Source: Verrucomicrobiota bacterium (lineage in GTDB: Bacteria; Verrucomicrobiota; Verrucomicrobiia; Limisphaerales; Palsa-1400). From it: a stretch of DNA of 64,000 nt. The notes beneath the pieces are model-generated. The model saw only the letters and a list, made by a program, of their open reading frames with translations. It searched no databases and had not been told where the DNA came from. Made by a program: the position numbers and the translations under genes. Positions 9,085 through 40,009 of the stretch are shown piece by piece. The stretch is from the NCBI GenBank assembly GCA_049510745.1, contig JBEKYR010000019.1:1-64000 (forward strand), in the 5' to 3' direction. Position 1 is the stretch's first letter; each line of letters starts with the position of its first letter.

Positions 9085-9147
9085 GTTTTTTGACTTGAAC
9101 GTCAAGCCGGAAGTCGCTTTCCGCGAGTTTAATTAAAGAAAGAAAAT

Positions 9148-10091: not shown

Positions 10092-10107
10092 CCGGACACC
10101 CAAAAAA

Positions 10108-12306: not shown

Positions 12307-12308
12307 AA

Positions 12309-19318: not shown

Positions 19319-19332
19319 AACCAGCGCGGAAA

Positions 19333-20301
19333 ATGGACGTGTTCCTCACCAGCCCGTGGATTCCCGCCGAATGGATCCGGGCGCACGGCTTGCAGCCGCG
19401 GGGCCTCTGGGCGGCGGAAAATCTCCAGGGCGGCGCGTGGCCGCTTTCCGCCGGCGACTGCGCGTTTGCGGAGGCCGTGGTGCGGTTTGCCGAGGCGCGC
19501 ACGGATTCCGCCGTGATTTTTTCGACGGCCTGCGACCAGCTCCGGCGCGGCTTTGACGCCGTCGTTCTCCACGGACAGGGCCGCGCGTTTTTGTTCAACC
19601 TGCCGGCCACGTGGCAGACGGCAGCGGCCGGGCAAATTTTCCGCTCGGAGCTGGAGCGGCTGGGACAATTTCTTTTGTCCATCGGCGGCCGCGCGCCGCC
19701 GGCGGAGGCGTTGCGGCAGGACATGTTGCGTTCCAGCCGGACACGCACGCGTTTGCTCGAATCAGCGCCGGCCAGTTCTCCGCGCGGGTTTGCCGAAGCC
19801 GTGGCGCGATTTCATGGCGACGGCTCTTTTTCGCCGCCGCCGCCGGACGCGCCGACAACTCAAATTCCGCTCGCCCTTGTCGGCGGCCCGTTTCCGGCGC
19901 CGCACTGGAAATTGCTGGACGAATTGGAAGCCGCCGGCGGACGCGTCGCGCTGAACGCCACCGAAACAGGCGAACGCAGCCTGTCGCCGGCGTTTGAATT
20001 TGAGGGCGGCGCAAACCATCCGTTCGACGCGCTGGTCCGCGGCTACTGCGACCACATTATTGACGTGTTCCAGCGGCCGAACACGCGGCTTTATTCCTGG
20101 CTGAAGCCGCGGCTGGCATCCCGCCGCGTGCGCGGCATCGTGCTCTGGCATTTCACCGGCTGCGATCTTTGGCGGGCGGAGGCGCAGACGTTGCGGGAGA
20201 CTTTTGGCCTGCCGGTCTTGCTGCTCGAAGCCGGCGGAGAACCGGGCGCCGCGCCGCGCGAAATCAACCGCCTCCAGGCTTTTGTGGAAACGCTCAAATG
20301 A
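19333..20301 (+). CDS. 2-hydroxyacyl-CoA dehydratase family subunit (HgdB/FldB-like, shortened)
   Basis: WIPAEWIRAHG, GDCAF, STACDQLRR, GCDLW, RLQAFVETL. Confidence 0.7.
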   Translation: MDVFLTSPWIPAEWIRAHGLQPRGLWAAENLQGGAWPLSAGDCAFAEAVVRFAEARTDSAVIFSTACDQLRRGFDAVVLHGQGRAFLFNLPATWQTAAAGQIFRSELERLGQFLLSIGGRAPPAEALRQDMLRSSRTRTRLLESAPASSPRGFAEAVARFHGDGSFSPPPPDAPTTQIPLALVGGPFPAPHWKLLDELEAAGGRVALNATETGERSLSPAFEFEGGANHPFDALVRGYCDHIIDVFQRPNTRLYSWLKPRLASRRVRGIVLWHFTGCDLWRAEAQTLRETFGLPVLLLEAGGEPGAAPREINRLQAFVETLK

Positions 20302-21683: not shown

Positions 21684-22471
21684 TTTGCGCCGGCATCGAC
21701 GCGGGTTCGCGCTCCATCAAGGCGCTGCTGTTCGACACCGACCGGGCGCAAGTTCTTGCCTCCGGCCTGGCCGACCAGGGCGTGGAACAAGAACGCCTGG
21801 CAGCGGAACTTTTCGCGGCGCTTTTGCGGGAGGCGGGACTGGAGCGGTCGCGCGTTTCCGGCGTGGTGGCCACCGGCTACGGACGCCATGCCATCCGTTT
21901 CGCCGACACCACCATCACCGAGATCACCTGCCACGCGCGCGGCGTCCACCGGCTGGCGCCGGACGCGCGCACGATTGTCGAGATCGGCGGACAGGACAGC
22001 AAGGTCATCTGCCTCGAAGACGGCGGGCGCGTGCGCGATTTTGCGATGAACGACCGCTGCGCGGCGGGCACGGGACGCTTCCTGGAGATGGTCGCGGCGC
22101 GGCTGGACATGAATTGGGAAAAGCTGTCGGAACTGGCGCGCCAGAGCAAAAAGCCCGCGCTCATCAGCAACATGTGCGTGGTCTTCGCCGAGACGGAAAT
22201 CATCGGCCTGCTGGCGGACGGCCAGCCGTTGGCGGACGTGGTGGCCGGCGTGCAAAACGCCATTGCCACCCGCGTGGGGGCGCTGGCCGGGCGGTTCGTT
22301 TCGCCGCCGGTTTATTTCACCGGCGGCGTCGCGTTGCTGGCCGGCATGGCCCGCGCGCTGGAGGAGGTTTTGGCTTGTCCGGTCCGGGTCGCGCCGCGGC
22401 CGCAATTCACCGGCGCGCTCGGCGCCGCGCTGTCCGCCCGCGCGGCCGAGCCGCCCGGCGGCGGCCTATGA
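21680..22471 (+). CDS. ATP-dependent [4Fe-4S] activase (HgdC/BadF/BcrA/D, YjiL-like)
   Basis: GIDAGSRSIK, ATGYGR, EITCHARG, IGGQDSK, MNDRCAAGTGRFLE, CVVFAETE, GALGAA. Confidence 0.92.
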   Translation: MICAGIDAGSRSIKALLFDTDRAQVLASGLADQGVEQERLAAELFAALLREAGLERSRVSGVVATGYGRHAIRFADTTITEITCHARGVHRLAPDARTIVEIGGQDSKVICLEDGGRVRDFAMNDRCAAGTGRFLEMVAARLDMNWEKLSELARQSKKPALISNMCVVFAETEIIGLLADGQPLADVVAGVQNAIATRVGALAGRFVSPPVYFTGGVALLAGMARALEEVLACPVRVAPRPQFTGALGAALSARAAEPPGGGL

Positions 22472-22543: not shown

Positions 22544-23953
22544 ATGCCGGATCAAAAACAGGAATTGCTGCGAGCGCTGCCAGCCATCACTGACTTGCTG
22601 AAAAGCGAAACCGCCGCCGGCTGGCTCCGGCAACATCCGCAGCCGCTTGTGACCGAATGTCTGCGCCGCGCGCTGGCCGGATGGCGGCGGCAAATCCTCG
22701 ATGACGCCGCCAGCCCTGGCGGCACGGAGCACCTCAGCGTTGAGACGGTGCTGGCACAGGCGGAAAAATTTCTCCAGGACGCCACCGAACCGCGCCTGCG
22801 CGAAGCCATCAACGCCACCGGCATCATCCTGCACACCGGCCTGGGCCGGGCGGTTCTGTCGGCGGGCGTGGTGGATTCGATGATGGACGAGTTGAAGGGT
22901 TATTGCACGCTGGCCGTGGACCGCGCCTCCGGCGAACGCGCCGGGCGCGATGAATTGGTGGAATACATCTTGACGGAACTGACCGGCGCCGAGGCGGCCA
23001 CGGTCGTCAACAATAACGCCGCTGCCACCCTGCTGGCGCTGGCGGCGCTGGCGGCGCCCAAGGAAGTCATCGTGTCGCGCGGACAGCTCATTGAAATCGG
23101 CGGCTCCTTCCGCCTGCCGGAAGTGATGGCGCAAAGCGGCGCGCGGCTCGTCGAAGTGGGCGCGACCAACCGCACGCATCTCAAGGATTACCAAAGAGCC
23201 GTCACGGAAAATACGGCGGCAATCCTGCGGGCGCATCCCAGCAATTATCGCGTCGTCGGTTTCACCAGCGAAGTCGCGCTGCGCGATCTGGCCGAACTGG
23301 CCCACGGCCGCAATTTGATTCTGATGGATGATCTCGGCGCGGGCGCGTTGGTGGATTTGAAACGCTTCGGCCTGCCCCACGAGCCGACCGCGCGCGAATC
23401 CATCGAAGCCGGCGCGGACGTGGTCCTGTTCAGCGGGGACAAACTCATCGGCGCCGGCCAGTGCGGCGTGATCGTGGGGCGAAAGGCGTTGATTGAAAGA
23501 CTCCGCCAACATCCGCTCATGCGCGCCGTCCGCGTGGACAAAATCTGCCTGATGGTTCTGGAGCGGACGCTGCACCTGTTCCGCGACCCGGCGCGGCTGG
23601 CACGCGAGCATCCGATCTACCGCATGATCAGCACGCCGCCGGAAGAGTTGAAATCGCGCGCCCAGGAACTCGCGCGCCTGATTTCCGCCGAAGCTCCCAA
23701 GGCCGGAATTGAAATCGCCGAAAGCGAGGCCTTCCTCGGCAGCGGCTCGTTGCCGACGGAGGCGATTCCCAGTTTTGTCGTGACGGTTTCCCTGCCGGAA
23801 ATGAGCGCCGCCGAACTGGCGCGGAGGCTGCGGTTGGATCGCGCCTGCGTTTTTGGACGCATCGAAAACGACCGGGTCTGCCTGGATGTGCGCACGTTGA
23901 CCGGCGAACAAGTGCCGGCCGTCGCCGCGGCCTTTGGCCGTCTCGTCGCATGA
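22544..23953 (+). CDS. selA: L-seryl-tRNA(Sec) selenium transferase
   Basis: INATGIILHTGLGRA, VNNNAAA, SRGQLIEIGGSFRLP, EVGATNRTH, FSGDKL. Confidence 0.97.
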   Translation: MPDQKQELLRALPAITDLLKSETAAGWLRQHPQPLVTECLRRALAGWRRQILDDAASPGGTEHLSVETVLAQAEKFLQDATEPRLREAINATGIILHTGLGRAVLSAGVVDSMMDELKGYCTLAVDRASGERAGRDELVEYILTELTGAEAATVVNNNAAATLLALAALAAPKEVIVSRGQLIEIGGSFRLPEVMAQSGARLVEVGATNRTHLKDYQRAVTENTAAILRAHPSNYRVVGFTSEVALRDLAELAHGRNLILMDDLGAGALVDLKRFGLPHEPTARESIEAGADVVLFSGDKLIGAGQCGVIVGRKALIERLRQHPLMRAVRVDKICLMVLERTLHLFRDPARLAREHPIYRMISTPPEELKSRAQELARLISAEAPKAGIEIAESEAFLGSGSLPTEAIPSFVVTVSLPEMSAAELARRLRLDRACVFGRIENDRVCLDVRTLTGEQVPAVAAAFGRLVA

Positions 23954-25899
23954 CCGCGCTGCGCCGCCACATCATGCTCGGCACCGCCGGGCACGTGGAC
24001 CACGGCAAGAGCGCGCTGGTCAAGCTGCTCACCGGCTGCGAAACCGACACGCTGGCGGAGGAAAAACAGCGCGGCCTCACGATTGACCTCGGCTTCGCGC
24101 CCTGCCAGCTCGCGGACAAACGGGTGGTCGGGGTGGTGGACGTTCCCGGCCACGTGGATTTCATCCGCAACATGGTCGCCGGCGCGCACGGCATCGACGT
24201 GGTCATCTTTGTCGTCGCGGCGGACGATGGCATCATGCCGCAAACGCACGAGCACCTGCACATTCTCACGCTGATGGGGTTGCGCCACGGGCTGGTGGCG
24301 CTGACGAAAATTGATCTCGTGGACGCCGCCCGGCGGGATTTTGTGATCCAGGATTTGCGGCGGCTGCTGGCGGAAACCTTTTTGGCCGGCGCGCCCATTT
24401 GTCCGGTCTCCAACGTCACCGGCGAAGGCCTCGACGATTTTTTTGACGCGTTGAACCGGACCGTGGACGCGTGCGGCGACCGGCCTTGCGCCGGGCCGTT
24501 CCGGCTGTGGGTCGAGGATGCGTTCAGCATCCGCGGCACGGGCACAGTCGTCACCGGCATTCCCACCCATGGCCGGGTTCGCCCTGGCGACGAGCTTCAT
24601 CTCTTGCCCGCCGGTCTGGCCGGGCACGTCCGCCGGATGCAGGTTTATGGCGAGGACGCCGCGGAAGGAAGCGCCGGGGAATGTGTCGCGCTGAACATAC
24701 CGGAACTGGAGCACGAAGCCGTCCGGCGCGGCCTGGCTCTCTGCGCTTCAAATATGTTCGAGCCGAGCATGATGGCCGAGGCGGAATTGCAAATTTTGAA
24801 ATCCATCCAAACCAACATCGAGGACTACCTCGAAGTGCAACTTCATGTTGGAACCGCCTCGGTCCCGGCGCGCCTGGCGATGCTGGAAAACACCGCCATG
24901 ACCGGCGGTCAAAGACAATTCGTCCAGCTTCGCCTCGCCTCACCGCTGCCGCTCGTGCCCGGGGAGCGGTTTGTGGCGCGGGCCAATGTTGCCGGCGCGG
25001 GCCTCAGCGGGCTGACGACCATCGGCGGCGGACAAATTCTCGGCTTGAGCAACGCGCGGTTGCGCCGGAAAAAACCATGGACGCTCGACCTGCTCGCCAC
25101 CCGGCGCGAAGCCGTCCAGCTTCCGCTGCGCTGGTGCGAACAGATGGTGCGCGAAAGCGAATCGCCCGCCACCGTGGCCAGCCTCCAAAAAAAATGCTGG
25201 AACCGCCCGGAGGAAATCGCCGAAGCGCTCGAACGGTTGCACGCCGAAAACCGGGTGGTTCAGGCGCCTGGCGGCGGATGGATTCATCGCGCCGCGATGC
25301 AAAAGATGGCGGAGAACATTCTCGCCGCCGTCCAGACTTTTCACGCGGCCAACCCGCAACGCGCCGGCATCAGCCGCGAAGAACTGCAGGCGGCGCTCAA
25401 AGCCGATCCCGTTTTTCTGGAGGCGGCGGCGGAATCGCTGCTGGACTCGAAGCAGATCGAACGCAACGGCGCGCTCTTGGCGCGGGCCGGTTGGAACGCG
25501 CGGATTCCAGAGCGCGACCAGCGCTTGTGCGACCAGATCGCCGCGAAATTGCAGCAAGGCGGCTGCTCCCCTCCGGGCTTGGCCGAACTGGCCGCGTCGG
25601 CCAACGAGCCGCTCCCGCGCGTCCTCGCGCTGGCGCAACTGCTGGCGGAACGCGGCGTGGTGGTGCGGTTGGACGACCAGATTTGGATGCACCGCGACGC
25701 CGTGGCGGCCGGCCGGGAAACGGCCCTAAGACTTTTCACGCGCGCGCCGGCCTTTTCCACGATGGAATTCCGCGACGCCCTCGGCGTCAGCCGCAAATTC
25801 GCCGTGCCGCTGGCGGATTACCTGGACAAAATCCGCTTCACCGTCCGCTCCGGCAACAATCGCACGCCGGGAGCGGAAGCCAGAAAACTCTTTCCATGA
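23950..25899 (+). CDS. selB: Selenocysteine-specific elongation factor
   Basis: GTAGHVDHGKS, EEKQRGLTIDLGF, DVPGH, C-terminal SECIS-binding winged helix FRDALGVSRKFAVPL. Confidence 0.97.
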   Translation: MTALRRHIMLGTAGHVDHGKSALVKLLTGCETDTLAEEKQRGLTIDLGFAPCQLADKRVVGVVDVPGHVDFIRNMVAGAHGIDVVIFVVAADDGIMPQTHEHLHILTLMGLRHGLVALTKIDLVDAARRDFVIQDLRRLLAETFLAGAPICPVSNVTGEGLDDFFDALNRTVDACGDRPCAGPFRLWVEDAFSIRGTGTVVTGIPTHGRVRPGDELHLLPAGLAGHVRRMQVYGEDAAEGSAGECVALNIPELEHEAVRRGLALCASNMFEPSMMAEAELQILKSIQTNIEDYLEVQLHVGTASVPARLAMLENTAMTGGQRQFVQLRLASPLPLVPGERFVARANVAGAGLSGLTTIGGGQILGLSNARLRRKKPWTLDLLATRREAVQLPLRWCEQMVRESESPATVASLQKKCWNRPEEIAEALERLHAENRVVQAPGGGWIHRAAMQKMAENILAAVQTFHAANPQRAGISREELQAALKADPVFLEAAAESLLDSKQIERNGALLARAGWNARIPERDQRLCDQIAAKLQQGGCSPPGLAELAASANEPLPRVLALAQLLAERGVVVRLDDQIWMHRDAVAAGRETALRLFTRAPAFSTMEFRDALGVSRKFAVPLADYLDKIRFTVRSGNNRTPGAEARKLFP

Positions 25900-27518
25900 A
25901 AATTGATTTTGCCAAACGCCGCCGCGTGATGGAGCGGTCGCAGCTTCTGGGGCATTGCATCTGCGACGTGCAACGGCCCTGTCCGTGCGATGTGCTTCGT
26001 GAACAGAATCTTTGTCCCTGCGCCGGAGAGCGGCCTGACACGGTTGACATTTCGCAGGTGAAATTGACGCAACTGGCGCGCAATGCCGGGTGCGCCTCCA
26101 AGCTCGCACCCGCCGATTTGGACGCGCTGCTGGGCCGGCTGCCGGCGGTGGAGGACCCGGCGGTGATTTCCGGCCTGGCCGCCGCCGATGACGCGGCGAT
26201 TTACCGAATGGCGGAGAACCTTTGCCTGGTGCAGACGGTGGACGTGTTCACGCCTTGCGTGGACGACCCGCGGCTCTTCGGCAAAATCTGCGCGGCCAAT
26301 TGTCTCTCGGACATCTACGCCATGGGCGGCGAACCGCGCACGGCTTTGAGCGTGCTGGCGTTTCCTTCCGAAAAACTGCCGGGCGAAATTATTTTTCAAA
26401 TGCTCGACGGCGCAATGGAGGTTTTCAAGCAAGCCGGCGTCGCGCTCGTCGGCGGGCACAGCATCAAGGATGATGAAATCAAACTCGGCTTTGCCATCAC
26501 GGGCCTGATCGATCCCGCCGTGGCCGCCGCCCTGGATAAGCCCAATGCCGGCGACGCGCTGGTCCTGACCAAACCGCTCGGCACGGGTGTGCTGGCGTTT
26601 TGCCGCCAAATCGGGCGCGAGCATCCGGCAGGCATCGCGGCGGCCGAACTTTCCATGTCCGCGCTGAACCAGGCGGCAGCGGAGGCGATGAAAGAAGCGG
26701 GCGCGTCGGCCTGCACGGACGTCACGGGCTTCGGCCTCTTCGCCCATCTGCTGCGGATGCTGCGGCCGGGCGGACTGGGCGCGGAAATTTTCGCGGAGAC
26801 GCTGCCGGCCTTCGACGGCGCGATGGACGCCCTGCGGCAAGGCGTGATTCCGGGCGCGATTGAGCGCAACCGCGAGTATGCCGGCGACGCGCTTCACGTT
26901 GCGCCGGGCGTAAACGAGGCCGCGGTGAACCTGGGATTCGACGCGCAGACTTCCGGCGGCTTGCTGATCGCCGTTCCGCCGGAGCGGCTGGAACGGTTGC
27001 GGCAATCTCTGGCCCGGCGCGGCGCCGGCCATTTTGTCATCGGCAAAATCGTTGCTGAAGCCGGACAGATTTATCTTTCAGCGGCCGGCAACAACACGGC
27101 GGAAATTTCAAGATTGAATTCAACCCTTCAACCGCGGAACATTGATTCCATGACAACACCAAAGAAAAATTCCCCGCCCCGCCACGGCGATTGCTGCGCG
27201 GGCGCGGGCGAAACCGCAGCCGGTTCCGCCGCCGAATCAGAAAAGGCCTTTGACGCGCTGATCCGGTCGGTGCGATCGGCGGGCGCGCTGGATGAAAAGA
27301 CGAAGGAACTTATTCTGTTCAGCCTGGTCGTGGGCAGCCGTTGTCAACCATGTTTTGAGGCGCATCTGCGCAAGGCGCGCGAACTGGGCCTCTCGCAGGC
27401 GGAACTGGACGAGGCGGCGTGGTGCGCCATCGCCCTGGGCGGCGCGCCGGTCATGATGTTTTATCAGGAATGCCTGGAGCGGATTCAATCGGGCAAGGCG
27501 GACCGGGCGCGACCTTGA
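25896..27518 (+). CDS. selD: Selenide,water dikinase (Cys form) with N-terminal Cys-rich extension and C-terminal CMD/AhpD domain
   Basis: Start at ATG 25896 (ATGA overlap with selB). Core motifs AGCASKL, DDAA, TVDVFTP, LSDIYAMGG, GGHS, LTKPLG, TDVTGFGL, DAQTSGGLL. C-terminal EKTKELI..SLVVGSRCQPC..H. Confidence 0.93.
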   Translation: MKIDFAKRRRVMERSQLLGHCICDVQRPCPCDVLREQNLCPCAGERPDTVDISQVKLTQLARNAGCASKLAPADLDALLGRLPAVEDPAVISGLAAADDAAIYRMAENLCLVQTVDVFTPCVDDPRLFGKICAANCLSDIYAMGGEPRTALSVLAFPSEKLPGEIIFQMLDGAMEVFKQAGVALVGGHSIKDDEIKLGFAITGLIDPAVAAALDKPNAGDALVLTKPLGTGVLAFCRQIGREHPAGIAAAELSMSALNQAAAEAMKEAGASACTDVTGFGLFAHLLRMLRPGGLGAEIFAETLPAFDGAMDALRQGVIPGAIERNREYAGDALHVAPGVNEAAVNLGFDAQTSGGLLIAVPPERLERLRQSLARRGAGHFVIGKIVAEAGQIYLSAAGNNTAEISRLNSTLQPRNIDSMTTPKKNSPPRHGDCCAGAGETAAGSAAESEKAFDALIRSVRSAGALDEKTKELILFSLVVGSRCQPCFEAHLRKARELGLSQAELDEAAWCAIALGGAPVMMFYQECLERIQSGKADRARP

Positions 27519-27686: not shown

Positions 27687-27932
27687 GTGATTACAACATT
27701 TAAAACCGACACGGTTAATTTTGGCGCCAAAGGCCAGGTGGTCATCCCCCGCCGTCTGCGCAGGGAATTTGAAATTGAGGAGGGGACGAAGGCGCAGGTG
27801 TATGTTGAGAACGGCCAGATTGTGCTCAAACCGATCACGTCGAAATTCATCAGAAGTTTGCGCGGCTCCTTGAAGGGCACCAAGGCGATGGAAACCTTCA
27901 TGGCGGAACGGAAGCGGGAAAGGGAATTATAA
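27687..27932 (+). CDS. vapB: AbrB/MazE-family antitoxin
   Basis: KGQVVIPRRLRREFEIEEG; overlaps the PIN gene by 1 nt. Confidence 0.85.
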   Translation: MITTFKTDTVNFGAKGQVVIPRRLRREFEIEEGTKAQVYVENGQIVLKPITSKFIRSLRGSLKGTKAMETFMAERKREREL

Positions 27933-28333
27933 TGGCCACCAAGGTTCTGGACAGTTGGGCACTCATGGCGCTCTTCAATGAAGAACCCGCCGCCAGCGCG
28001 GTGGAAAAACTTCTGGCCCAAGCCGCTGCTGACCGGCACAAACTTTTGATGAGTGTGGTGAACTGGGGTGAAATTTATTATTCCGTGGCACGCGGAGCTT
28101 CCCGCGAAATGGCGGAACAAAAAGCCAAAGAAATTGCCGCCATGCCCCTTGAGATTGTGCCTGCCGATCTTCACCAGACTCACCAGGCTGCGATTTACAA
28201 GGCCGCGTGCAGAATGTCCTACGCCGACTGCTTTGGCGCGGCCCTGGCCAAGATCAAAAACGCAGAGTTCGTCACCGGCGACCCGGAATTCAAAGAAGTT
28301 GAGAAGGAAATAAAAATCAACTGGCTGAAATAA
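27932..28333 (+). CDS. vapC: PIN-domain toxin
   Basis: VLDSWAL, SVVNWGE, SYADC, VTGD.EF. Confidence 0.9.
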   Translation: MATKVLDSWALMALFNEEPAASAVEKLLAQAAADRHKLLMSVVNWGEIYYSVARGASREMAEQKAKEIAAMPLEIVPADLHQTHQAAIYKAACRMSYADCFGAALAKIKNAEFVTGDPEFKEVEKEIKINWLK

Positions 28334-28351
28334 TCGCAGCCCGAGAAAACT

Positions 28352-30646
28352 ATGGCATACGAAGAACTGGTCATTGATCTACTGAAGGCGGAGCGTGAGG
28401 AAGACGTTACTGCCGCGCTCACAGTCTATGGCTTGGAGAAATTCACTGATTCGAATTGGATTCCATATGGGGGAACGCTTTTTGAAAATAATTACGGATT
28501 GATAGGGACGCAACAGGCTGATTCGCTTGGCGCTCTAGTCGAAAAGGTCGTGAATTCGATTGATGCAGTTCTGATGCGGGAATGTCTAGCGAGAAACCTC
28601 GATCCCAGAAGTAATCTTGTGCCGCGAACGATGAACGAAGCGGCTGAACAGTTCTTGAACATTCCAGAAGGCAATTTAGCCAAGCTGTCTCCAACACAAC
28701 GGACAGAACTGGCCGAAAAGAATATCAGCATCATCGTGACAGGGCAGAAGCCTGACGAAGGCAACCCATGCATCATAGTTGCTGACACCGGAGAGGGACA
28801 GAGGCCCGAAGACTTCAAAGACACCCTTGTTTCATTGCTTCGCAGCAACAAATGTTCTGTCCCGTTTGTTCAGGGCAAATTCAACATGGGCAGTACTGGC
28901 AGCCTAGTGTTTTGTAGCCCGAACAAGAATTACCAGTTGATCATTTCACGACGTAACGCGGCAATTCCTACAGCCCGAAATTCAAAATGGGGATTCACTT
29001 TAATCAGGAAGCGTCCTCCAATGAAGAATGAGAAGAATGAGCGTTATGAATATCTCGCGCCGAAAGGGAAGATCTGTGAACTCGATCTTGATGAAATCCC
29101 AATTTTTCCAGACGCCGAAAATGTGCCCTACAAACGCCCAATCAAATGCGGGACGATCGTAAAGCTTTACGAGTATGACCTTCCGAGAAGTATAAAGACG
29201 ATGGCGACCGCAGATTTCTACCGGGCTTTATCAACCAAGCTCTGGACGGTGGTCGTTCCGATGCGAATTTATGAGGCGCGGGGTTACAAAGGTCACACTC
29301 TTGAGAGCACGTTTTCTGGGATGAACATCCGGCTTGAAGATGACAAAGGTGACGTCCTGGAGGAAGGGTTTCCATGCAATTTTACTCTTAATATTCCGAA
29401 GGTCGGAATGGTTGATGGGCGCATTTGCCTATTCAAAAAGGACGCCGAAATCTCACGTTGGGTAAGTTCACGAGAGGCGATCATTTACACTATTAACGGC
29501 CAGTCTCACGGCGCGCTGCCGAATGATTTTTTCCGACGCCAGTCAGTCAATCTCCCGTGGATACAGAAACAACTCTTGATCAACATTGATTGTTCGCGCC
29601 TCGACCAGCAATTGATCAACAGAATGTTTATGACCAGTCGCGACAGGCAGCGCGATGTTCAGGAAAAAGACTTCCTAGAGTCTGCCCTGGCCGAATTTGT
29701 TCGCAAGCATCCGGGGCTTCGGGAGTGGAACGAGCGACGCCACAGAGAAACGGTCGAGGAACAGTTCGTGGAGGAATCAGAAACGATCGAACTATTTGAA
29801 AAATTAGTAGCGCAGAATCCAGCACTCGCTGAGATTCTCGGTGTTGGTCTCAAAATCAAAGTCCCAAAGCCCGGCGAACAGCCGACTTCAAAGTTCGAAG
29901 GCCAAAGATTCCCAACGTTTTTGAAACTCGAAGACGCCCATAACAACGACGATTTCGTCAAAAAGTGTCCCCAGAATTCCTATTGTCGCGTTACTTTATT
30001 AACCGATGCGGAAAACGATTATTTGGTCCGAGCGATTGAGCCGGGGAAACTTATCATCAGACCGGAAGCATTGGTCAAGAGTACTAGCCTCTACAATGGC
30101 CGGTTGGAACTGCAACTAGCCCCGGAAAAAATGTACGATGTTGGTCACCGTATTGAAGTAAAGGTAATGTTAACCAGCCCGAACTCGACCGAGGGCTACT
30201 TTTCAGTTCGGTTTTGGCTGGAGATCGATTCGCCAGTGCAGCCAAAGAAGAGTCCTCCCAGCCCGCCCAAGCCGCCAAAAGTAACGACCGTGGCCCTGCC
30301 TGAAATCAAAGAAATCAAAAAGGATCAATGGGCCGAGGCTATCGAAATTACTTCCGACGATGATGTCGTGAAGATAATGAAGGACAACCAAGGGACGACT
30401 TCTCTCGTGAACATGGATAATCGCCACTACCGCCGCTATGTTTACGCCAACCCCAAGCGAGAGCAGGAGATTAGAAACCTCTACAAGATCTCATCAACAA
30501 TCATGGGGCTTTGGCTGCTCGAACAGGTTGATAAAGGTGGTCTCCAGGAGGAAAACCGAAGATCGGTGAGTAACTCACTTGGCCGGCTTCTGCTTCCTTT
30601 GGTTGATTCACTAGGGAGCAAGTTGGCTGAATTAGAGCAAGGGTAG
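28352..30646 (+). CDS. GHKL-type ATPase-domain protein of unknown function
   Basis: EKVVNSIDA, DTGEG and GKFNMGSTG correspond to GHKL N/G1/G2 boxes. Markedly lower GC than the flanks. Confidence 0.7.
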   Translation: MAYEELVIDLLKAEREEDVTAALTVYGLEKFTDSNWIPYGGTLFENNYGLIGTQQADSLGALVEKVVNSIDAVLMRECLARNLDPRSNLVPRTMNEAAEQFLNIPEGNLAKLSPTQRTELAEKNISIIVTGQKPDEGNPCIIVADTGEGQRPEDFKDTLVSLLRSNKCSVPFVQGKFNMGSTGSLVFCSPNKNYQLIISRRNAAIPTARNSKWGFTLIRKRPPMKNEKNERYEYLAPKGKICELDLDEIPIFPDAENVPYKRPIKCGTIVKLYEYDLPRSIKTMATADFYRALSTKLWTVVVPMRIYEARGYKGHTLESTFSGMNIRLEDDKGDVLEEGFPCNFTLNIPKVGMVDGRICLFKKDAEISRWVSSREAIIYTINGQSHGALPNDFFRRQSVNLPWIQKQLLINIDCSRLDQQLINRMFMTSRDRQRDVQEKDFLESALAEFVRKHPGLREWNERRHRETVEEQFVEESETIELFEKLVAQNPALAEILGVGLKIKVPKPGEQPTSKFEGQRFPTFLKLEDAHNNDDFVKKCPQNSYCRVTLLTDAENDYLVRAIEPGKLIIRPEALVKSTSLYNGRLELQLAPEKMYDVGHRIEVKVMLTSPNSTEGYFSVRFWLEIDSPVQPKKSPPSPPKPPKVTTVALPEIKEIKKDQWAEAIEITSDDDVVKIMKDNQGTTSLVNMDNRHYRRYVYANPKREQEIRNLYKISSTIMGLWLLEQVDKGGLQEENRRSVSNSLGRLLLPLVDSLGSKLAELEQG

Positions 30647-30822: not shown

Positions 30823-31707
30823 TCACTTTTGACACTCCTCATTAGACGTGGTTTGCGGCAGGGCAAAGCACGGTTCAATGGCGCCGCAGGTGGCGCATTC
30901 CAGGCAGCGGATGCAGCCGGAAACGTTGACGGCCTGATCCACTTTCACACCCATCGGGCAGCGGCTGCGGCAGAGGTTGCATTCGACGCATTGCTGCGGA
31001 TTGAACCGGAGATGAAACAGGCTCAACCGGTTGAAGAGCGCGAGCAACCCGCCGAGCGGACAAAACACGCGGCACCACGGCCGGTGAATGAAAAGCGCGG
31101 CCGCAAGAAAGGAGAGCAAAATGCCGCTCTTCAACCCGCTCATCAGCCAACCGTTGCCGGCAAGCAGGCTTTGCACGGAGTAAGGCACGCCGGCTTCCAG
31201 CGCGCCGGCCGGACAAAGCCGGCAAATGGAAATGACCTGCCTTTCAAATGGAATGCCGTTGAAACCCAGAATCAGCGGCAGAAGAATCACCAATCCTACC
31301 AGAACGAAGTAACGGCCGTAACCGGTCCAGGACGGCAGGATGATTTTCCGGGTGGTGATTTTGCCGAGCAAGTCCTGGAGAAAACCGAACGGACAAGCCC
31401 AGCCGCAAACGATGGAACCGCCGGCCGCGCCGACGAGCACGAGCACGCCGATCAATAAATACGGCACTTCCCCCGCCACTGGCAGCAGCGCCGCGTAGTT
31501 GGCCATCACACCCACCGGGCAGGCGAAGGCCGAGAGCGGGCACGAGTAACAGTGGAACACGCAGCCGGGAATGCCGTGCAGCCACCGGCCCAGCGGCGCG
31601 AGCCACAGGCCGAGAAAACCGGTTTGCACCCAGGGACGCCAGCGCGAGAGTTTTCGTCCGAGCGCCGCCGGCTTCCATTCAGGGCAATTGGGAACGGGAC
31701 ATTCCAT
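30823..31707 (-). CDS. Membrane 4Fe-4S ferredoxin (NapH/MauN-like)
   Basis: HCYSCP...ACP, CGWACPFG, CRLCPAG, WCRVFCPLG, CVECNLCRSRCP, CIRCLEC, plus TM helices. Confidence 0.9.
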   Translation of the reverse strand: MECPVPNCPEWKPAALGRKLSRWRPWVQTGFLGLWLAPLGRWLHGIPGCVFHCYSCPLSAFACPVGVMANYAALLPVAGEVPYLLIGVLVLVGAAGGSIVCGWACPFGFLQDLLGKITTRKIILPSWTGYGRYFVLVGLVILLPLILGFNGIPFERQVISICRLCPAGALEAGVPYSVQSLLAGNGWLMSGLKSGILLSFLAAALFIHRPWCRVFCPLGGLLALFNRLSLFHLRFNPQQCVECNLCRSRCPMGVKVDQAVNVSGCIRCLECATCGAIEPCFALPQTTSNEECQK

Positions 31708-31717
31708 GGGAACAGGT

Positions 31718-31736
31718 CGGCCACGCCACGTGGCCG
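31718..31736 (-). promoter_or_regulatory. Putative SECIS element 1
   Basis: On the minus strand: TGA (31752-31750), then 14 nt, then GGCCAC-GTGGC-GTGGCC. Confidence 0.7.
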
Positions 31737-31740
31737 GAAT

Positions 31741-32115
31741 TCATCTTATTCAGGTGGGACAGGGCGTTTTTGCGCCGAGGTCCACGCGGATTTTCCACGC
31801 CGGCGGCTGGGTATGGGCCTGTTGTTTGGCCCAGCGGTCAAGCGCCTCGCCGGGATTGGCCACGGCATCGAGTTTCGGCGGCGGCGGCGGCGCGACTTGG
31901 TCCGGGTATTGCAAACCGCCGGAGGAGAAGGCTTTGACCAACTGCGTTTCCCACGCCGTGTTTCCGTCCGTGGTGTCCACGTTGGTCAGATGCCGCGCGC
32001 CGCTAAACAGCAGCGCCGCGCCGGTCAGCGCGACAACCAAGCCGGACCAGAAATCGTGGTCTTCCCGCGCGCGCGACGCGCGATTGACCGGTGGCTGGGG
32101 GACTCGCTTGAACAT
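31741..32115 (-). CDS. Putative small membrane selenoprotein with C-terminal CxxU (…KTPCPT-U-IR)
   Basis: ATG at 32115, 18 nt after the tRNA-Sec CCA end. One TM helix. CPT-TGA followed by a SECIS-like hairpin; next stop is TGA at 31743-31741. Confidence 0.7.
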
Positions 32116-32133
32116 GCTACGGATTGGGGAAAA

Positions 32134-32230
32134 TGGCGGAGGTGGATGGGAATCGAACCCACCTGGGACTTTGTTGAGTCCCACGCTGGTTTTGAAGACC
32201 AGGAGCGCCACCAGGTCGCCCCACACCTCC
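32134..32230 (-). tRNA. selC: tRNA-Sec (anticodon UCA)
   Basis: GGAGGTG...CTGGT-CTTCAAA-ACCAG, long variable arm TGGGACT/AGTCCCA, GTGGG-TTCGATT-CCCAT, CACCTCC-GCCA. Confidence 0.95.
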
Positions 32231-32390
32231 CCGGCGGACCGCCGCGCCGCTGGCCAATGGCAGGCGTGATTGATTTCCGGCGGGCCGCATCACACAGGTA
32301 TATTGACAGATTGGAGCGGATAACTCAATCCGAATTTAGTCGCCAGCCGCGCCATAAATGGCAGACTGTTTGCACGTCAGGAAAGAATTT

Positions 32391-33227
32391 ATGGACATTC
32401 GAAAAGCCGTCATCACCGCCGCCGGTCCGGGCCAGCGGACGCTGCCGCTGCAAACGCTGGTTGACCGCGACGGCAAAACCAAGACCGCGCTCGGCATCAT
32501 CGTGGAGGAGGCGCTCAATTGCGGCGCGGAGGAAACCTGCGTGGTGGTCCATCCGGGCGACGCCGAGGCCTACCGCGCCGCCGCCGGGCCGCACGGCAAG
32601 CGATTGCAGTTCGTGGAGCAGGAGAAGGCGCTGGGCTACGGCCACGCCGTCTGGTGCGCCCGCGCCTTCACCGGATCGGAGCCGTTTCTGCTCCTGGTCG
32701 GCGATCATCTTTATCTGAGCCGGGAGAAACGCAGTTGCGCGCGGCAATTGGTCGAGGTCGCCGCGGCCGAGGCCTGCGCCGTTTCCGCCGTGCAGGCCAC
32801 GCACGAAAGCAAACTGCCCTATTACGGCGTGGCGGGCGGGCGGCTGGCGGAGAACCGCAAAGGCCTTTACCTCATTTCCGAGGTGCTGGAGAAACCGACC
32901 CCGACCGTCGCCGAACAACGCCTCATCGTTCCCGGATTGCGCGCGGGCCATTATCTTTGTTTTTTCGGGATGCACGTTCTGACGCCGGCGGTGATGGATT
33001 TGCTGGGGGCGGAAATGGCCGCCGGCCAGGCGGCCAGCCTGAGTCAAACACTCGCCAAGCTGGCCAGCCGCGAGCGCTATCTGGCCTGCGAATTACAGGG
33101 ACGCCGGTTTGACATCGGTTTGAAATACGGCCTGCTGACCGCGCAACTGGCGCTGGCCCTGAGCAGCCCGGCCCGCTCCGAAGTGCTCGCCGGACTCGTC
33201 GAACTCCTCGCCCAGGAACCCCATTGA
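32391..33227 (+). CDS. Sugar-phosphate nucleotidyltransferase (GalU-like)
   Basis: [40 protein letters not shown]. Confidence 0.8.
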
Positions 33228-33235
33228 TCACGCGC

Positions 33236-36200
33236 ATGGCCAGCCCGCTCCTCGACATCATCACCTCGGCGGACGCGAGAATTCGCAACCAGCCGCTCGA
33301 CGCCTTTTGCGCCCGCGCCCCGGCAGATGAACTGCTGGCGGCCTGCGCGGAACTGGAGGGCTTCCGCCGCCGCAGCGACAATCTTTACGAGCGCGTCCGC
33401 GCGTTGTTCTTCCTTTACGCGATTCACCGTTTTCATCTGCCGGGGAAACTGCCCGCGGGCGCGGACGGCATGATTCCCTTCAAAGGATTCGAACATCTGC
33501 TGCACCGCCGGTTTGAAGAGGCGCTCGACCAGTTTCTTTCCGCGCAAAAAAGCGGCGGCCCCAGCGACGCCCTTTGCAGCGCGCTGGCCGCCGTGTATCA
33601 ACGCATCGGCTTTCAGACGCTGGCCGACCAGGTGCGGCGCAGCGTCCGTTCGGTGCGCGGCAACCAATGGATGTTCCGCATGGGCCATCCGGAGGATCAT
33701 CCGTTGCGCGTGCGCCCGGAACTGCTGCAACGCGGCGCGGACGGCGCCTTCCCCGTGCTGCGCGAACGCACCCCGGTGCGGATGGATTTGAGCCATTCGG
33801 GCTGGAGCGACATTTTCTTTCTCGGCATGGATTTTCCCGAAGGCGCCCGCGTGCTCAACGTCTCCATTGACCTGGGCGTTCACGGGCGCGACCAGGCGGC
33901 GCAGCCGCCGGTGGAGGCCTGCTTGCGGGTGATTGACGAACCGGTTTTGCGCCTGACCAGCGTGGACCTCGGCGCCACGGCGGAGATCAACAATCTGGCC
34001 GAGGTTTTTGATTTCGCCCGCGACTACCTCGGATTGCTCAAAGCGGCCGTCATCGCTGCCGGCATTGTGCCGCCGGGCATTGAAGGTTCGGGACTCAATC
34101 TGGCCGACTTGCTCGCGCGGGTCGCCGGGGCCGGGCGCGGCCTGGAATTGGTCAGCCACGTCAACGATATTCCGAAAGGCTCGCGCCTGGCGGTCTCGAC
34201 CAACCTGCTCGCCTCGCTGATTTCCGTCTGCATGAGGGCCACCGGCCAGGCCAAGTCGCTGACTGGCGCGCTGGCCGAGGAGGAACGGCGCCTGGTGCTG
34301 GCGCGCGCGTTGCTGGGCGAATGGCTCGGCGGCTCGGGCGGCGGCTGGCAGGATTCCGGCGGCGTGTGGCCGGGCATGAAACTCATTTGTGGCGTGACCG
34401 CGACGGAAGGCGATCCCGAATTTGGCATCAGCCGGGGCCGGCTCATGCCGGCGCACCGCATTCTGGATCGCCACGACGTTTCGTCCGAGACGCGCGAGCG
34501 TTTGCAGCAAAGCCTCGTGCTCGTCCACGGCGGCATGGCGCAAAACGTCGGGCCGATCCTCGAAATGGTGACGGAAAAGTATCTGCTCCGTTCCGCCGCC
34601 GAATGGGCCGGACGGCAGCAGGCCATCGGGTTGCTCGATGAAATCGTGTCGGCGCTGCGCGCCGGAGATGTGCGCGGGGTGGGCGCCCTGACCACGCGCA
34701 ATTTTTGCGAGCCGATCCAAACCATCATTCCGTGGGCCAGCAACGCCTTCACCGAATCGGTCATCGCGTCCGTGCGGGACGAGTTTGGCGCGGATTTCTG
34801 GGGGTTCTGGATGCTCGGCGGCATGTCCGGCGGCGGGATGGGTTTCATCTTTGAGCCGCAACGCAAGGCGCGGGCGCAGCAGCGGTTGCAGGAAATCATG
34901 TCGCAAACCAAGCGCGAACTGCAACACGCGCTGCCCTTTGCCATGGAGCCGGTGGTCTATGATTTCGCCATCAACGAGCGCGGCACCTGGGCGGACCTGC
35001 TGCGCGGCGACGAGGCGTTGCTGCCGCGCGGCTACTACGCGCTGCATGTTCCGCGCTGGCTGCGGGCCGATCCGCAGGCGCTGACCAGGGCGCAGCGCGC
35101 CGAACTGGACAAGTTCGGCGCCGCCTGCCGCACGCGAACGGAATTGTCCGGCATGATGCAGACGCTCTTCGACCGCCTGCTGCCCCGGCTCAAATCCGAG
35201 GGCGGCTCCCAGCAAAGCCTGGCGGAATTGCTCGAACAAAACGGCTTCGACCGCGTGCAGCATGAGCAGATTCGCGACGATTTGAAAGACGGCCGCATCG
35301 GCTTGGCCCAAAACCGCCTGCCCGCCAGCGCCGACATCAAGGACGTGCAGGATGCCGATGTGTTCAATGCCACCGGGCCGTTGGCGGAGGAATTGCGCCA
35401 GGCCGGCCTGGCCGCCCTCGCCCGCGGCGAACTGGCGGTGGTCACGCTGGCCGCCGGCGCGGGCAGCCGCTGGACGGAAGGCGCTGGTGTGGTCAAGGCG
35501 CTGCATCCGTTCTGCAAATTCAACGGCCTGCACCGGACGTTCATCGAAACGCACCTGGCCAAGAGCCGCCGTATCGGCCAACTGGCCGGCCAGACGCTGC
35601 CGCACTTCTTCACCACCAGCTACCTGACCCACGCGGCCACCGAGGAATTCCTGCGCCGGAAGAAAAATCATCATTATCCCGGACCGCTGCTCCTGTCGCC
35701 CGGCAGGTCCATCGGGCTGCGGATGATCCCGATGGTGCGCGACCTGCGCTTTCTCTGGGAGGAGATGCCGCAGCAACGGCTCGACGAGCAGCAGCAAAAA
35801 GTGCGCGACAGCCTGCGGGCCGCGCTCCTCAACTGGGCCCGTTCGGCGGGCGAGGGCGGCGATTACACCGACAATCTCCCGGCCCAATGCCTGCACCCGG
35901 TGGGACACTGGTTCGAGGTGCCGAACCTGCTGCGCAACGGCGTGCTGGCGCGCTTGCTCGCCGAACGTCCGCAGTTGCGGCACCTGATGTTGCACAACAT
36001 CGACACGCTCGGGGCGGACGCGGACCCGGCGCTCTTCGGTTTGCATCTGGCGCAGGAGGGCTGCCTGACGTTCGAGGTCATCACGCGCCGGCTGGAGGAC
36101 CGCGGCGGCGGCCTGGCCCGCGTTAATGGCCAGGTGCGGCTGGTGGAAGGACTGGCCATGCCGCGCGAGGAGGATGAGTTCCAACTCCGCTTCTACAATT

Positions 36201-36556
36201 CAAACACCTGCTGGATCGACATCGACAAACTGCTGGCGGTTTTCGGCTTGAGCCGGGCCGACCTTTCCAAGGCGGAACACGTCGCCGCCGCCGTGCGCGC
36301 GCTGGCCGCGCGCATGCCGACCTACATCACGATCAAGGATGTCAAGAAGCGCTGGGGCCACGGCCAGGAAGACGTGTTCCCGGTCAGCCAGTTTGAGAAA
36401 CTGTGGGTGAACATGACCGCGTTGCCGGAAGTGAAAACGCGCTTTGTCGTGGTGCCGCGCCTGCGGGGACAACAGCTCAAGGACCAGGCGCAACTGGACG
36501 GCTGGCTGCGCGATGGCTCGGCCGATTTCGTCAACCAGCTTTGTGCCTGGCCGTGA
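33236..36556 (+). CDS. GHMP-kinase-like / UDP-sugar pyrophosphorylase fusion
   Basis: [32 protein letters not shown], then [32 protein letters not shown]. Confidence 0.75.
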
Positions 36557-36606
36557 ATACGGATTGATATTGCAGTAAGCCCTTCGATTTGCTAATAGCC
36601 TGTCTA

Positions 36607-38706
36607 ATGGCAAAGCAAAAGACTGGTGGCTTATCATGGCGCTGGCTGGGAACCGCCGGGGTGGCTTGCTGGACGTGTGCGCTGTTGGTTGTGCTTTGCT
36701 CGGAAAACAGGCTTCGCGCGGCTGATTCTCTTCTTTCCGGTTCTCCGTCCTCAAACGCCGTCATGGCTGCGCTGGAGTATCAGGAAACAGACTCTGGCGT
36801 CATCAACTGGGGCGTTTCCCTGACGCCGCGGACCAGTCCTTTCAAAAAAGAGCCGGCGGCGGCTTCGGGCAAAATCATTCGCGGCGTTTTGAATTTCGGC
36901 GCCGATTCCAGCAACTCCATTCCCTTTCTCTGGCAGTGCCAGGCGGGAAAACTTTACCTCGACCTCAATCGCAACCAGGATTTGACCGACGATCCCTCCG
37001 GCCTGTTCTTGGCGCGCGCCGCGAAGCCGGATAATTACCAGACCTTTGCGAACGTCCACCTGCTTTTCAACACCGCTTCCGGCAGGTGCCGGGTGCTGGC
37101 GGACCTCTCCTTCTGGGACTACAGTGCGCCGCCAATTTGCAGCTTCGCGGTGCGCTCGTTCTGGCAAGGCAAACTGAGGTTGCAAGGGCGGGATTGGCAG
37201 GTGGGCATCGTCCCGAATATCCTGGACCGATCGGGCTTGTTCGAGAACAGCCGGTTGCTGCTGCGTCCCTGGGATAAACGAAGCCAGCCGTTCAACGCGG
37301 ATGATGGGTTGCTCGCCACTGTTCCCTTCTCGCGGAAACTTTTTGTGGATGGCCACGCCTATCAACTGGAGTGCGTCGCCCGTTCGCAAGACGGCGAAGC
37401 CAGGCCCGCGCTCCAATTCACGGAACAATCCGTCGCGCTGGGCGAAGTGAAAATCACCGGCCAATTCATCCGCCGCCTTGTTCTGCAGGGCGAGGCGTTC
37501 CTGGTGGTGCTCGATCAGCCGGCAGGCGTCGTGAAAATCCCGGCCGGCAGCTATCACCAGCCCGAGATCCTGCTCGAACAAGACGGCGTCGCGGCCTTCT
37601 CCCGCAATTCCGGCCAGTGGCAAATTGGCCGGCAGATTTCCGTGCGCGACAAGGCACAGGTGGCATTGAACGCGGGCGGGCCGTTGACCAATTCCGTCGC
37701 CACCGGCCGCCACGGTCAGGATTTGCGTCTGGATTATTGCCTGCTCGGCGTGGGCGGCGAAACTTACCAACTGGCCAGGCAAGATCGCTCCAAGCCGCCG
37801 GAGTTCGCGGTTTACAAGGGCGGAAAAAAAATCGCGTCCGGCAGATTTGAGTTTGGCTGAGGCAACACCTGCTCGCACTCATGGCGAGTGCCTCTCACCG
37901 CCGGCGGCAAACTGTCCCTTGTGGCTTCGTCCGACCTCGGAGCGCTCGGTGCGAAGGAAGGTCCGGCGGTCATCTACGACTGGGTGTTGCCCAGCCTGGC
38001 GCCGCTGTTGCTGCCGTGGCTGGTCATTCTGGGATTGCTCACCTTGAAACGGAATCGTTGCGCGGCCGCGTGGTGGATTTGGCTGCCGCTCGGATATGTG
38101 ATCGCGTTTACGTTGGCGCCGCTGGACATCATGCCCGCGGGAACAGATTTTTTCCTGGATGTCATCGCGGCGCTGGCGGCGGGGCTGGGCGCGGTCTGGC
38201 TCCTGACAGATTATCTCCGGCGGCCACATCGGTTCGTTACGTTTCTGTGCCTCCTGCTCGCCTTGGCCGGTTTCAGCGCGCTGGCCTTTGTGTCCGCACA
38301 AAGCTGGAGTTTCACGTCGGAAACATTTGTGGCCGGCATCGTTCTGGCCGTGGGCGTGGTGGTCAGTGCGGTGGCGTTGAGTCTGGCCGGGCTGATCTGC
38401 CGCGGCCGTTATCGTCGCGTCGGCCTTTATGGGTGGCTGCTCCTCTTGCTGGCCGTCATCTGGCTGGTGATCACCGGGCCTTTCTTTTTGTTCGCGCTCA
38501 TCGCTTCAGGCGGAAGAGTGTCTTGGGGCGGATTCTTTGTTCCCGTTTTTGCGTTGGTGACGCTCCATTTCGCCACCCTGCTGCCGTTCCTGATCCTGTC
38601 CTCGGCCAGCCCGTTTTACCGCCAACGGCTCAAGGCCCTGCTGCACGTCACACCGGAAGCGCCGCCCGTGCTGGCGCCTTTGCCGGATGCCGGTTTAAAA
38701 ACTTGA
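36607..38706 (+). CDS. Putative exported/membrane selenoprotein (FEFG-U-GNTC) with about 7 C-terminal TM helices; TGA 37858-37860 read as Sec
   Basis: The 36589..37860 and 37888..38706 ORFs are in the same frame, separated only by this TGA and 9 sense codons. A SECIS-like hairpin follows. Confidence 0.8.
37875..37891 (+). promoter_or_regulatory. Putative SECIS element 2
   Basis: TGA, then 14 nt, then GCACTC-ATGGC-GAGTGC. Confidence 0.8.
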
Positions 38707-38737: not shown

Positions 38738-40009
38738 ATGAAACTTTCCAAACAACTGTTCCTGGCCGGAATGGTTCTCGCCGGCGCCGCCTTCGCGCAA
38801 TCCGAGCAATGGCTGGAATACCACACCGGCGCCGAGGGCCGCGCCTACCAGCAGGTGGAACTGACCACCAATCCGCCCCCCGGCGTCGCTCTGCCGAAGT
38901 TCAATGCGCCGCCCTATTTCGCCCGCTGGCTCACGCCGATGGACCCCGCCGGCGGGCGCTGGCTCTGCCTGGACCGCACGCGCAAGTCCGGACCCTATGA
39001 CCGGCTGTTCTTTGACAACAACGGCAATGGCCGGCTGGACGACAAATCGCCCCTCCCGGCGCGGCTGGATTCCTCCTTCGCCTATTTTCCGCCAGCCCGC
39101 GTTGTGTTCAAGGGCGAGGACGGGCCGATCACCTATCATCTTGTCTTCCGCTTCTATCAATACGAAAAGAATCCCCCGCAATTGCTGGCCTCCTCCGCCG
39201 GCTGGTATGAAGGTCTGGTCAATTTCGACGGCGCGAAAAAGCGCATTCAACTCATCGACGGCAACGTCAACGGCACGTTCAACGACGTCGCCCCGGACCC
39301 GTATGACTGCGACCGCGTCCAAGTCGAGGGCGACAAGACCAGCGAACGGTTTTTGGGCCGGATGCTGGAAGTGGACGGGAAGTTTTACCGGATCGAAGCC
39401 GCCCGCGACGGCGCGTTCGTCAAAGTGCAGAAGGCGGAGAACGTCACCCTCGGCCAGGTGCGTGTGCCGGAAAACATTTCCGAATTCGCCGCCTTCGGCC
39501 CGAACGGCCATTTCGTGCGCACACCGGCGGACGGCCAATTCACCTTGCCGGCGGGCCATTACCGGATTTTCCACTGGACGATCAGCCGCAAGGATGAAAA
39601 GGGCGCGCCGTGGACGCTCTCAGGCTATAATTTTCCCAAAACCGCCACCTTCGAGGTCGCCGCCGATAAGACCGCCTTGGTGCAAATCGGTGAGCCGGTG
39701 CAAGCCGTGCTCAAGGCGGCGGAGGGCGCCAAGCGTCAAGTCGATTTCAGCCTCAGCTTCGTGGGCCGGCAAAAGGAATCCATCGAGATGCTGTGCGACG
39801 GCCAGCGCCCGCGCGGGCCGAAATTGACGTTGGCCAACAGCGACGGGACGCTGTGTTATACGAACACTTTCGAGTTTGGATGAGGCGGCGTTTGCTCGCT
39901 CTCATGGCGGGAGCCTAAAAATGTGCGGCGTCCGTTGGTTGGCGGCGTCAAAATTTTCAGCCCGTTCCAGGTGCTGACGAGTCCGTTGACGCTCGCGCCA
40001 AAAAAATAA
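38738..40009 (+). CDS. Putative exported selenoprotein (FEFG-U-GGVC), paralogue of the preceding gene; TGA 39881-39883 read as Sec
   Basis: Signal peptide. Read-through adds UGGVCSLSWREPK...LAPKK up to TAA at 40007-40009, 12 nt before the next ATG. Confidence 0.78.
39898..39914 (+). promoter_or_regulatory. Putative SECIS element 3
   Basis: TGA, then 14 nt, then GCTCTC-ATGGC-GGGAGC. Confidence 0.8.

Follow-up and report, generated by a model that had tools for sequence, protein, structure and literature searches.

The window, by which we mean the whole stretch of 64,000 nucleotides, carries three features in close succession on its minus strand: selC, encoding a tRNA-Sec with anticodon TCA (32134-32230; ARAGORN and Rfam RF01852, scoring 70.7 bits where the gathering threshold is 47); a gene for a small protein with a single transmembrane (TM) segment (31741-32115); and a gene for a membrane polyferredoxin of the NapH/MauN/YccM type (294 aa, 30823-31707). 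The ATG of the small gene, at 32115, lies 18 nt past the end of the tRNA-Sec, and ARAGORN, RF01852 and the ORF coordinates confirm the gene order given in the preliminary description. The small gene comprises 121 codons up to KTPCPT, followed by TGA ATA AGA TGA, the final TGA being at 31741-31743. If the first TGA (31750-31752) is read as selenocysteine 122, the product is a protein of 124 aa that ends in C119-P-T-U122-I-R. A 158-aa ORF with a GTG start, which runs through selC and is present in some database entries, was dismissed as a gene-caller artefact; conservation begins at the Met at 32115. No sigma-70 promoter match was found on the minus strand between 30600 and 32500, a result that is uninformative.

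Behind the TGA lies a bacterial SECIS-like hairpin with GG in the loop (31718-31736, minus strand; -15.2 kcal/mol, z = -2.95, with 1 of 200 shuffles as good), the 6-bp core of which begins 17 nt past the first base of the TGA. A SECIS stem-loop just 3' of the UGA is given as a trait of bacterial selenoproteins in PMC9312934. Conservation was assessed in a GTDB scan, which yielded 48 small-gene loci, one of which runs off its contig, leaving 47 complete ones. In all 47, CPT-TGA is followed by exactly two residues and a stop. The second stop varies (TAA in 28, TGA in 16 and TAG in 3), and the two codons in between are represented by 8 and 7 different triplets, which always encode [IVLM] and then [KHR]. 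The hairpin is found 16-20 nt after the TGA in 47/47 loci (offset 17 in 31), and its 6-bp stem, closed by a 5-nt loop that contains GG, is fully paired in 45. All 7 stem pairs show two-sided compensatory changes and none of 500 shuffles reached any of the five covariation measures, scores that are inflated by kinship; in slid-window controls the pairing dropped from 95% to 21-54%. Homologues ending in CPT with TAA or TAG and lacking the hairpin numbered 0 of 47. The 124-aa selenoprotein with a near-terminal CPTU, as proposed in the preliminary description, is strongly supported by the invariant TGA, the variable second stop and the covarying hairpin.

The same tail was recovered from metagenomes with a blind pattern, in which CPT-TGA and the hairpin were fixed and the 14 bases between them were left open. 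Among the 119 matches listed, 107 had two residues and a stop, and 105 of these matched the family profile, the other two being 9-residue stubs at contig ends; the remaining 12 were unrelated and had different tails. Within the genome itself, TGA ends 2036 coding-like frames. A further stop follows three codons on in 46 of them, and the small gene is the only one of those 46 with [IVLM][KHR] between the TGA and the stop; the strict hairpin occurs in 6 of the 2036. The various locus sets overlap and are kin, and their counts are neither additive nor independent.

Could the TGA be an ordinary stop, with the next stop as a back-up and a hairpin that protects the mRNA or couples translation to that of the ferredoxin? 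TGA is the commonest stop in this genome (1189 of 1997 training ORFs), no Cys/TGA pair was found among the homologues, and 18/46 loci have the ferredoxin starting right past the hairpin, at 43-46 nt from the TGA. However, the first stop is TGA in 47/47 loci although the second varies, the intervening codons vary synonymously and conservatively, and the hairpin keeps a spacing of 16-20 nt to the TGA, against 43 to 575 nt for the ferredoxin start. Moreover, the same hairpin stands behind TGAs inside two long reading frames (see below), selA, selB, selC and selD are all present in the window, and selA was found in 9/11, 9/10 and 5/5 of the carrier genomes tested. Judged from these patterns, an ordinary stop is very improbable, and TGA122 is almost certainly read as selenocysteine. 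Two other roles were rejected. A double read-through yielding a fusion of small protein and ferredoxin, whose frames agree in the window, would be in frame with a TGA second stop in only 5/46 loci and is out of frame in 30/46. The hairpin does not qualify as a terminator on the coding strand; it is not followed by a T run, and the terminator scan lists it on the opposite strand only.

The small protein has one hydrophobic segment by hydropathy (residues 22-40), which coincides with a helix (22-40) in the AlphaFold2 model. It further contains an N-terminal PQPP..R..E motif, a helix with E56-x-Q-L-V-K-A-F-x-x-G-G and, preceding CPT, a variable Pro-rich linker whose length runs from almost zero to some 60 residues. 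Homologues as distant as 26% identity still share C119 and T121 without exception. The relatives belong to Verrucomicrobiota, several of them to Limisphaerales. No Pfam or NCBIfam model fits the protein with or without the tail, and the extended protein plus 59 members gave no recurring match in NCBIfam release 20.0 at E up to 1. Comparison with PDB structures gave a best E of 4.1 (Foldseek) and a best Z of 2.8 (VIA-align), mostly reflecting the TM helix, and a search of the ESM Atlas yielded no usable match. The best 120 of 336 database homologues all end at CPT; none of these 120 is a Cys-form relative, and 0/90 profile matches continue with Cys. Given that the selenocysteine stands so near the end, at three residues, and that a homologue with Cys was not found, every database copy seen appears to be truncated. 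A profile search of 300 genomes of the phylum returned no small gene, whereas a ferredoxin-first search with an equal sample size did find distant members; the counts of absence are therefore lower bounds, because the profile is too narrow and misses members reached via the ferredoxin. Table 1 of PMC13188914, a review from 2026, lists 119 families and does not include this one, and no account of it was found in the literature searched; it may still be listed in Haft and Tolstoy 2025, Marckmann 2019, supplements or the BSepDB online tables. The small gene very probably represents a real selenoprotein family, previously uncatalogued as far as tested.

The ferredoxin matches Pfam Fer4_5 (E 2.8e-13) and has two CxxxCP sites (C101/C105 and C212/C216), two 4Fe-4S motifs (C240-C250 and C265-C274) and a set of extra residues: C49, H52, C53, C56, C63, C162 and C165. 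The motif cysteines and the extra Cys/His residues are all invariant (32/32 in the alignment). Two CxxxCP sites, two C-terminal 4Fe-4S motifs and about four TM helices are shared with NapH, MauN, RdxA, CcoG and YccM; Escherichia coli YccM is a match at 27% identity, and related Atlas clusters carry the names YccM or 4Fe-4S binding. The present ferredoxin differs from these proteins by its extra Cys motifs and its dedicated selenoprotein partner. The preliminary description had called it a NapH-like multi-4Fe-4S membrane protein, and this holds for the architecture but not for an identity as NapH: the scores are below the NapH cut-offs (44.5 versus 213 for TIGR02163; 33.4 versus 234 for PRK09477), and neither napG nor napA is a neighbour among the conserved families around the gene. 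The single-chain model of the ferredoxin (pLDDT 43) was too poor for a fold search.

Small gene and ferredoxin are strictly coupled. The small gene and close ferredoxins (at least 81% identical) share the same 11 of 61 related genomes, and the ferredoxin is the next gene in 46/48 small-gene loci. Conversely, a CPT-TGA gene lies upstream in 19/21 ferredoxin loci, one of the remaining two having none within 1.5 kb and the other no room for one. For distant ferredoxins from other classes (31-40% identical), 5/7 loci have a TM gene that ends in CPT-TGA-x-stop and carries a GG-loop hairpin; of the other two, one carries another kind of gene with a TGA and the second lacks any. All five genomes of this distant type that were tested have selA.

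Complex prediction for the two proteins gave an ipSAE of 0.79, the best of three controls reaching 0.00. The ipSAE mark is reached by 116/157 solved complexes and 2/215 mismatched pairs, figures that apply roughly, own alignments having been supplied here. The runs agree in at least 88% of the contacts, and the partner pLDDT is at least 72. In the model, the TM helix of the small protein packs on ferredoxin helix 82-95, the best-defined contacts being those of residues 25-36 with ferredoxin residues 83-95 and 230. The modelled interface includes residues 7-26, 56-70 and 118-121 of the small protein and residues 44-80, 153-176 and 225-285 (the Fe-S region) of the ferredoxin; its confident part takes in residues 7-26 and 118-121 of the small protein and, in the ferredoxin, region 225-285 along with residues 54-55, 62 and 162-163 of the extra Cys motifs. 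The modelled chain excludes U122-I-R, and no direct contact of C119 with a ferredoxin cysteine is listed. The ferredoxin has no solved sequence relative at E 0.01, which makes recall of a close solved complex less likely. The strict gene coupling and the complex prediction together support a physical partnership, and the small protein is likely to form a complex with the ferredoxin as its second subunit.

The association with selC is looser. In 37/47 loci the small gene is preceded, at a distance of 13-456 nt, by a full tRNA-Sec; in 2/47 its 3' end alone is found, and in 8/47, one of them without room, there is none nearby. selA is still present in 9/10 genomes without a full selC near the small gene. 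Thus, selC is a frequent but dispensable neighbour, since a full tRNA-Sec is missing nearby in 10/47 loci and selA is kept in 9/10. Co-transcription of selC and the small gene is plausible. Metatranscriptome contigs of relatives span selC/small gene and small gene/ferredoxin, although such contigs do not prove a single transcript and are not counted here as evidence of one, and three peat metatranscriptome runs contained 5-6% of the words. In the two loci with the partial tRNA (L013 and L035), what precedes the small gene is no more than the last 31-32 nt (3' end) of tRNA-Sec, as at an integration site. In the genome of L013, selA is also split into two pieces, which suggests that this island is decaying.

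Genes for the selenocysteine machinery lie 3-8 kb downstream on the opposite strand, converging on the small gene/ferredoxin unit: selA (22544-23953), selB (23950-25899) and selD (25896-27518), all on the plus strand and over the NCBIfam cut-offs. At least one of the three is found downstream in 19/38 loci with 5 kb of room. SelD is of the Cys form and has a C-terminal AhpD/CMD domain and an N-terminal extension, rich in Cys and about 50 aa long, without a Pfam match; the same three-part layout occurs in another genome (G036). Directly before selA-selB-selD, three HGD-D (double-cubane-like) genes, a SAM methyltransferase gene and an ATP-dependent activator gene occupy 17370-22471 (plus), and an HGD-D block adjoins sel genes in several relatives and in other classes. 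This block is itself preceded by DUF4159, FHA-MoxR AAA, DUF58, BatA/vWA and GATase1-like genes (918-17370, plus). The gap between selD and the ferredoxin gene holds an AbrB/VapC-like antitoxin-toxin pair and a lower-GC gene for a 764-aa GHKL-ATPase-like protein (27687-30646, plus), and in relatives variable cargo.

No formate dehydrogenase over cut-off was found in the genome, the best Fdh-like match having no internal stop, and selU and yqeB were not found in the 94%-complete assembly. On contig C4 near 181700 (minus strand), an ORF of 1513 aa is followed by one that, from its motifs, we take to be MvhD-like. Cys stands at the usual selenocysteine positions there, despite the presence of the Sec machinery.

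The small protein is not the sole selenoprotein of the genome; this option was ruled out by two further Sec genes in the window, both on the plus strand and detected in relaxed window scans. These had escaped the preliminary description. The first (36589-38706) encodes a predicted exported selenoprotein of about 705 aa with a C-terminal membrane domain and FEFG-U-GNTC (TGA 37858-37860). The second (38738-40009) encodes one of 423 aa with a signal-peptide-like N-terminus and FEFG-U-GGVC (TGA 39881-39883). Both TGAs lie in FEFG-TGA-GxxC-SxSWR and are followed by a hairpin with an ATGGC loop at offset 17, a combination of offset and loop type that no coding-like frame of the genome shows apart from these two genes and the small gene. 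All 118 database homologues of the 423-aa protein stop at FEFG. Neither exported protein has a Pfam or NCBIfam match, and no PDB sequence matched a G-U-GxxC domain profile at E 1. Heuristic genome scans, which can miss small or atypical genes, gave no further selenoprotein candidates. The next gene (40022-43327, plus) encodes an exported protein of 1101 aa that carries CarboxypepD_reg repeats and, at the C-terminus, a weak AhpC-TSA-like domain in which no CxxC was seen; this protein accompanies the cluster in 22/48 loci.

The exported Sec motif is found in 10/11 small-gene genomes; the remaining one (G021) has the small gene/ferredoxin pair but no motif match. It also occurs in G036, whose small gene is short and distant, and there are chance matches in 2 other genomes. 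Usually, the exported genes and the CarboxypepD_reg gene precede selC on the same strand (21/37 loci with 7 kb of room), and 16/37 loci are without exported genes in the upstream DNA examined. In two loci of another class (L257 and L258) the exported genes directly follow the ferredoxin in the same direction. In the present genome a distance of 4.4 kb separates selC from the exported block, which occupies the opposite strand; between them are a GalU-like gene and a gene for a 1110-aa sugar-kinase/UDPGP fusion (32358-36556, plus), a pair found in 0/48 related loci. From its reading frames and hairpins, the conserved cluster is one of three predicted, uncatalogued selenoprotein genes together with sel genes.

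Two more sets of genes were seen at related loci. A third paralogue of the exported selenoproteins (family F13) occurs at 11641-13077 (minus) of locus L023 and at 8 other loci; the one copy inspected lies between the ferredoxin and selD and has a PFG-TGA-DGTC..SWRIP end and an ATGGC loop. A further candidate selenoprotein family, with MCP[ST]-TGA-GGxGG and a strong hairpin, is found near the ferredoxin in two genomes of other classes (at 8372, plus strand, in L259; 280 nt before the ferredoxin gene in L255).

A comparable pair is encoded on the Peptoclostridium acidaminophilum plasmid NZ_CP007453.1, where RefSeq annotates WP_168023683.1 as a CD1871A family CXXC motif-containing protein and WP_025437090.1 as '4Fe-4S binding protein'. 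As in the present case, the ferredoxin gene directly follows one for a small protein with one TM segment, which here has a CxxC near its end with Ile as the next residue. The ferredoxin is 37.6% identical to the present one and keeps C53/C56/C63, C162/C165, both CxxxCP sites and the Fe-S cysteines. A gene for a TlpA disulfide reductase lies two genes upstream. The CD1871A protein differs in that it has 45 aa, is Cys-only and lacks the linker. Against one CD1871A sequence the small protein gave an hhalign probability of 5%, over the TM segment only, and it has no NCBIfam match; remote homology is possible. The literature searched contained no paper using the term CD1871A. Because the ferredoxins are alike and homology of the small proteins was not detected, the small protein looks like a selenium counterpart of CD1871A in role and position, and is not shown to be a member of that family.

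The ending of the small protein also resembles the UXX-star motif, which Haft and Tolstoy (2025) reportedly defined as a U-x-x-stop ending. The likeness lies in the order of selenocysteine, two residues and stop, with a SECIS past the stop codon. Table 1 of PMC13188914 includes the UXX-star families NF041114, NF041211, NF041212 and NF047649. In contrast to the UXX-star families, the motif is CxxU rather than GxGU or UxPK, the protein is membrane-anchored, and distant members end in U-x-stop. The curated UXX-star HMMs (NCBIfam release 20.0) did not match the extended protein or 59 members at E up to 1. The tso three-selenoprotein operons (TsoA/B/C/X/Y in Table 1 of PMC13188914) likewise have several unrelated selenoprotein genes per conserved cluster, but their motifs are different and none of the three proteins described here has an NCBIfam match.

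With respect to topology, 108/120 homologues of the small protein have more K/R before than after the TM segment. Because the positive charge precedes it, the CxxU is probably outside, and the protein probably has an N-in/C-out orientation, in which C119-x-x-U122, carried by a flexible linker, would be exposed at the outer face. The Fe-S domain of NapH lies on the inner side. By analogy, C162/C165 of the ferredoxin would be outside if its Fe-S domain is inside as well. Hydropathy marks residues 60-78 but not 25-45 and is thus ambiguous for the first helices of the ferredoxin, which makes an outer position of C49-C63 uncertain; for these residues to be outside, 25-45 would have to span the membrane as a helix and 60-78 would not.

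On balance, sequence and model lead us to favour slightly a two-subunit membrane redox module that exposes the CxxU outside the cell and serves the exported selenoproteins. A cytoplasmic donor would feed electrons into the two 4Fe-4S clusters of the ferredoxin, from which they would pass via the CxxxCP sites and the outer Cys pair(s) of the ferredoxin to the CxxU; this in turn would reduce exported partners, the likeliest being the co-clustered G-U-GxxC selenoproteins. We give such an outward relay to the exported selenoproteins an even chance, and the clustering with sel genes may merely reflect a shared island. DsbD/CcdA relays work with Cys pairs and thioredoxin and are not known to employ Fe-S clusters. 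The present pair would do the DsbD/CcdA job by an Fe-S route; the likeness is functional and lies in the proposed job alone, the supply of reducing power to exported redox proteins, and no sequence relation to DsbD/CcdA was found.

The same complex might instead act on a metal or metalloid, as a CcoG-like reductase or a binding site, for example for selenium destined for the adjacent SelD, or for Cu, Hg or As. CcoG has the plan of CxxxCP and two 4Fe-4S motifs too. It is described as a Cu2+ reductase in PMC8456105, and the review PMC13188914 allows that selenocysteine in UXX-star families may serve as a metal ligand. The pair also adjoins selD-selB-selA, the three HGD-D genes, their activator and the methyltransferase. 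However, the HGD-D block is found in only 4-7/48 loci (a distance-limited count) versus 18-22 for the exported selenoproteins, the ferredoxin has only 294 aa and matched no CcoG/FixG family model, and a Sec-dependent supply of the selenium donor would be circular, although SelD is of the Cys form here. We regard a metal or metalloid substrate as rather unlikely. A static role is conceivable as well, with the CxxU serving as a fixed pair of ligands and filling out a metal or Fe-S site together with the extra Cys/His of the ferredoxin, as is an inward flow of electrons (sensor or oxidase). That residues 118-121 of the small protein lie in the confident modelled interface speaks for a fixed ligand, as do the seven invariant extra residues of the ferredoxin, which exceed the needs of one disulfide relay. 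The Pro-rich linker, with its wide range of lengths, fits a tether better than a rigid site, and we consider a fixed ligand pair or inward flow quite unlikely.

Returning to the outward relay, a broader reading, which we put forward tentatively and with some doubt, is that a YccM-type polyferredoxin with a small CxxC/CxxU subunit constitutes an undescribed Fe-S reducing route across the membrane, parallel to DsbD/CcdA. In these Verrucomicrobiota the route would be all-selenium, with a Sec-tipped arm that reduces exported G-U-GxxC selenoproteins, and the whole Sec machinery would perhaps be kept for three uncatalogued proteins.

Overall, the analysis adds a selenoprotein family that standard methods have missed, and the uncatalogued selenoproteins would account for the Sec machinery in a genome where no Sec-type formate dehydrogenase was found. 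It also offers a testable partner and job for widespread uncharacterised membrane polyferredoxins and the adjacent CD1871A-type small proteins. If the outward relay is true, it would be a further way of keeping exported proteins reduced.
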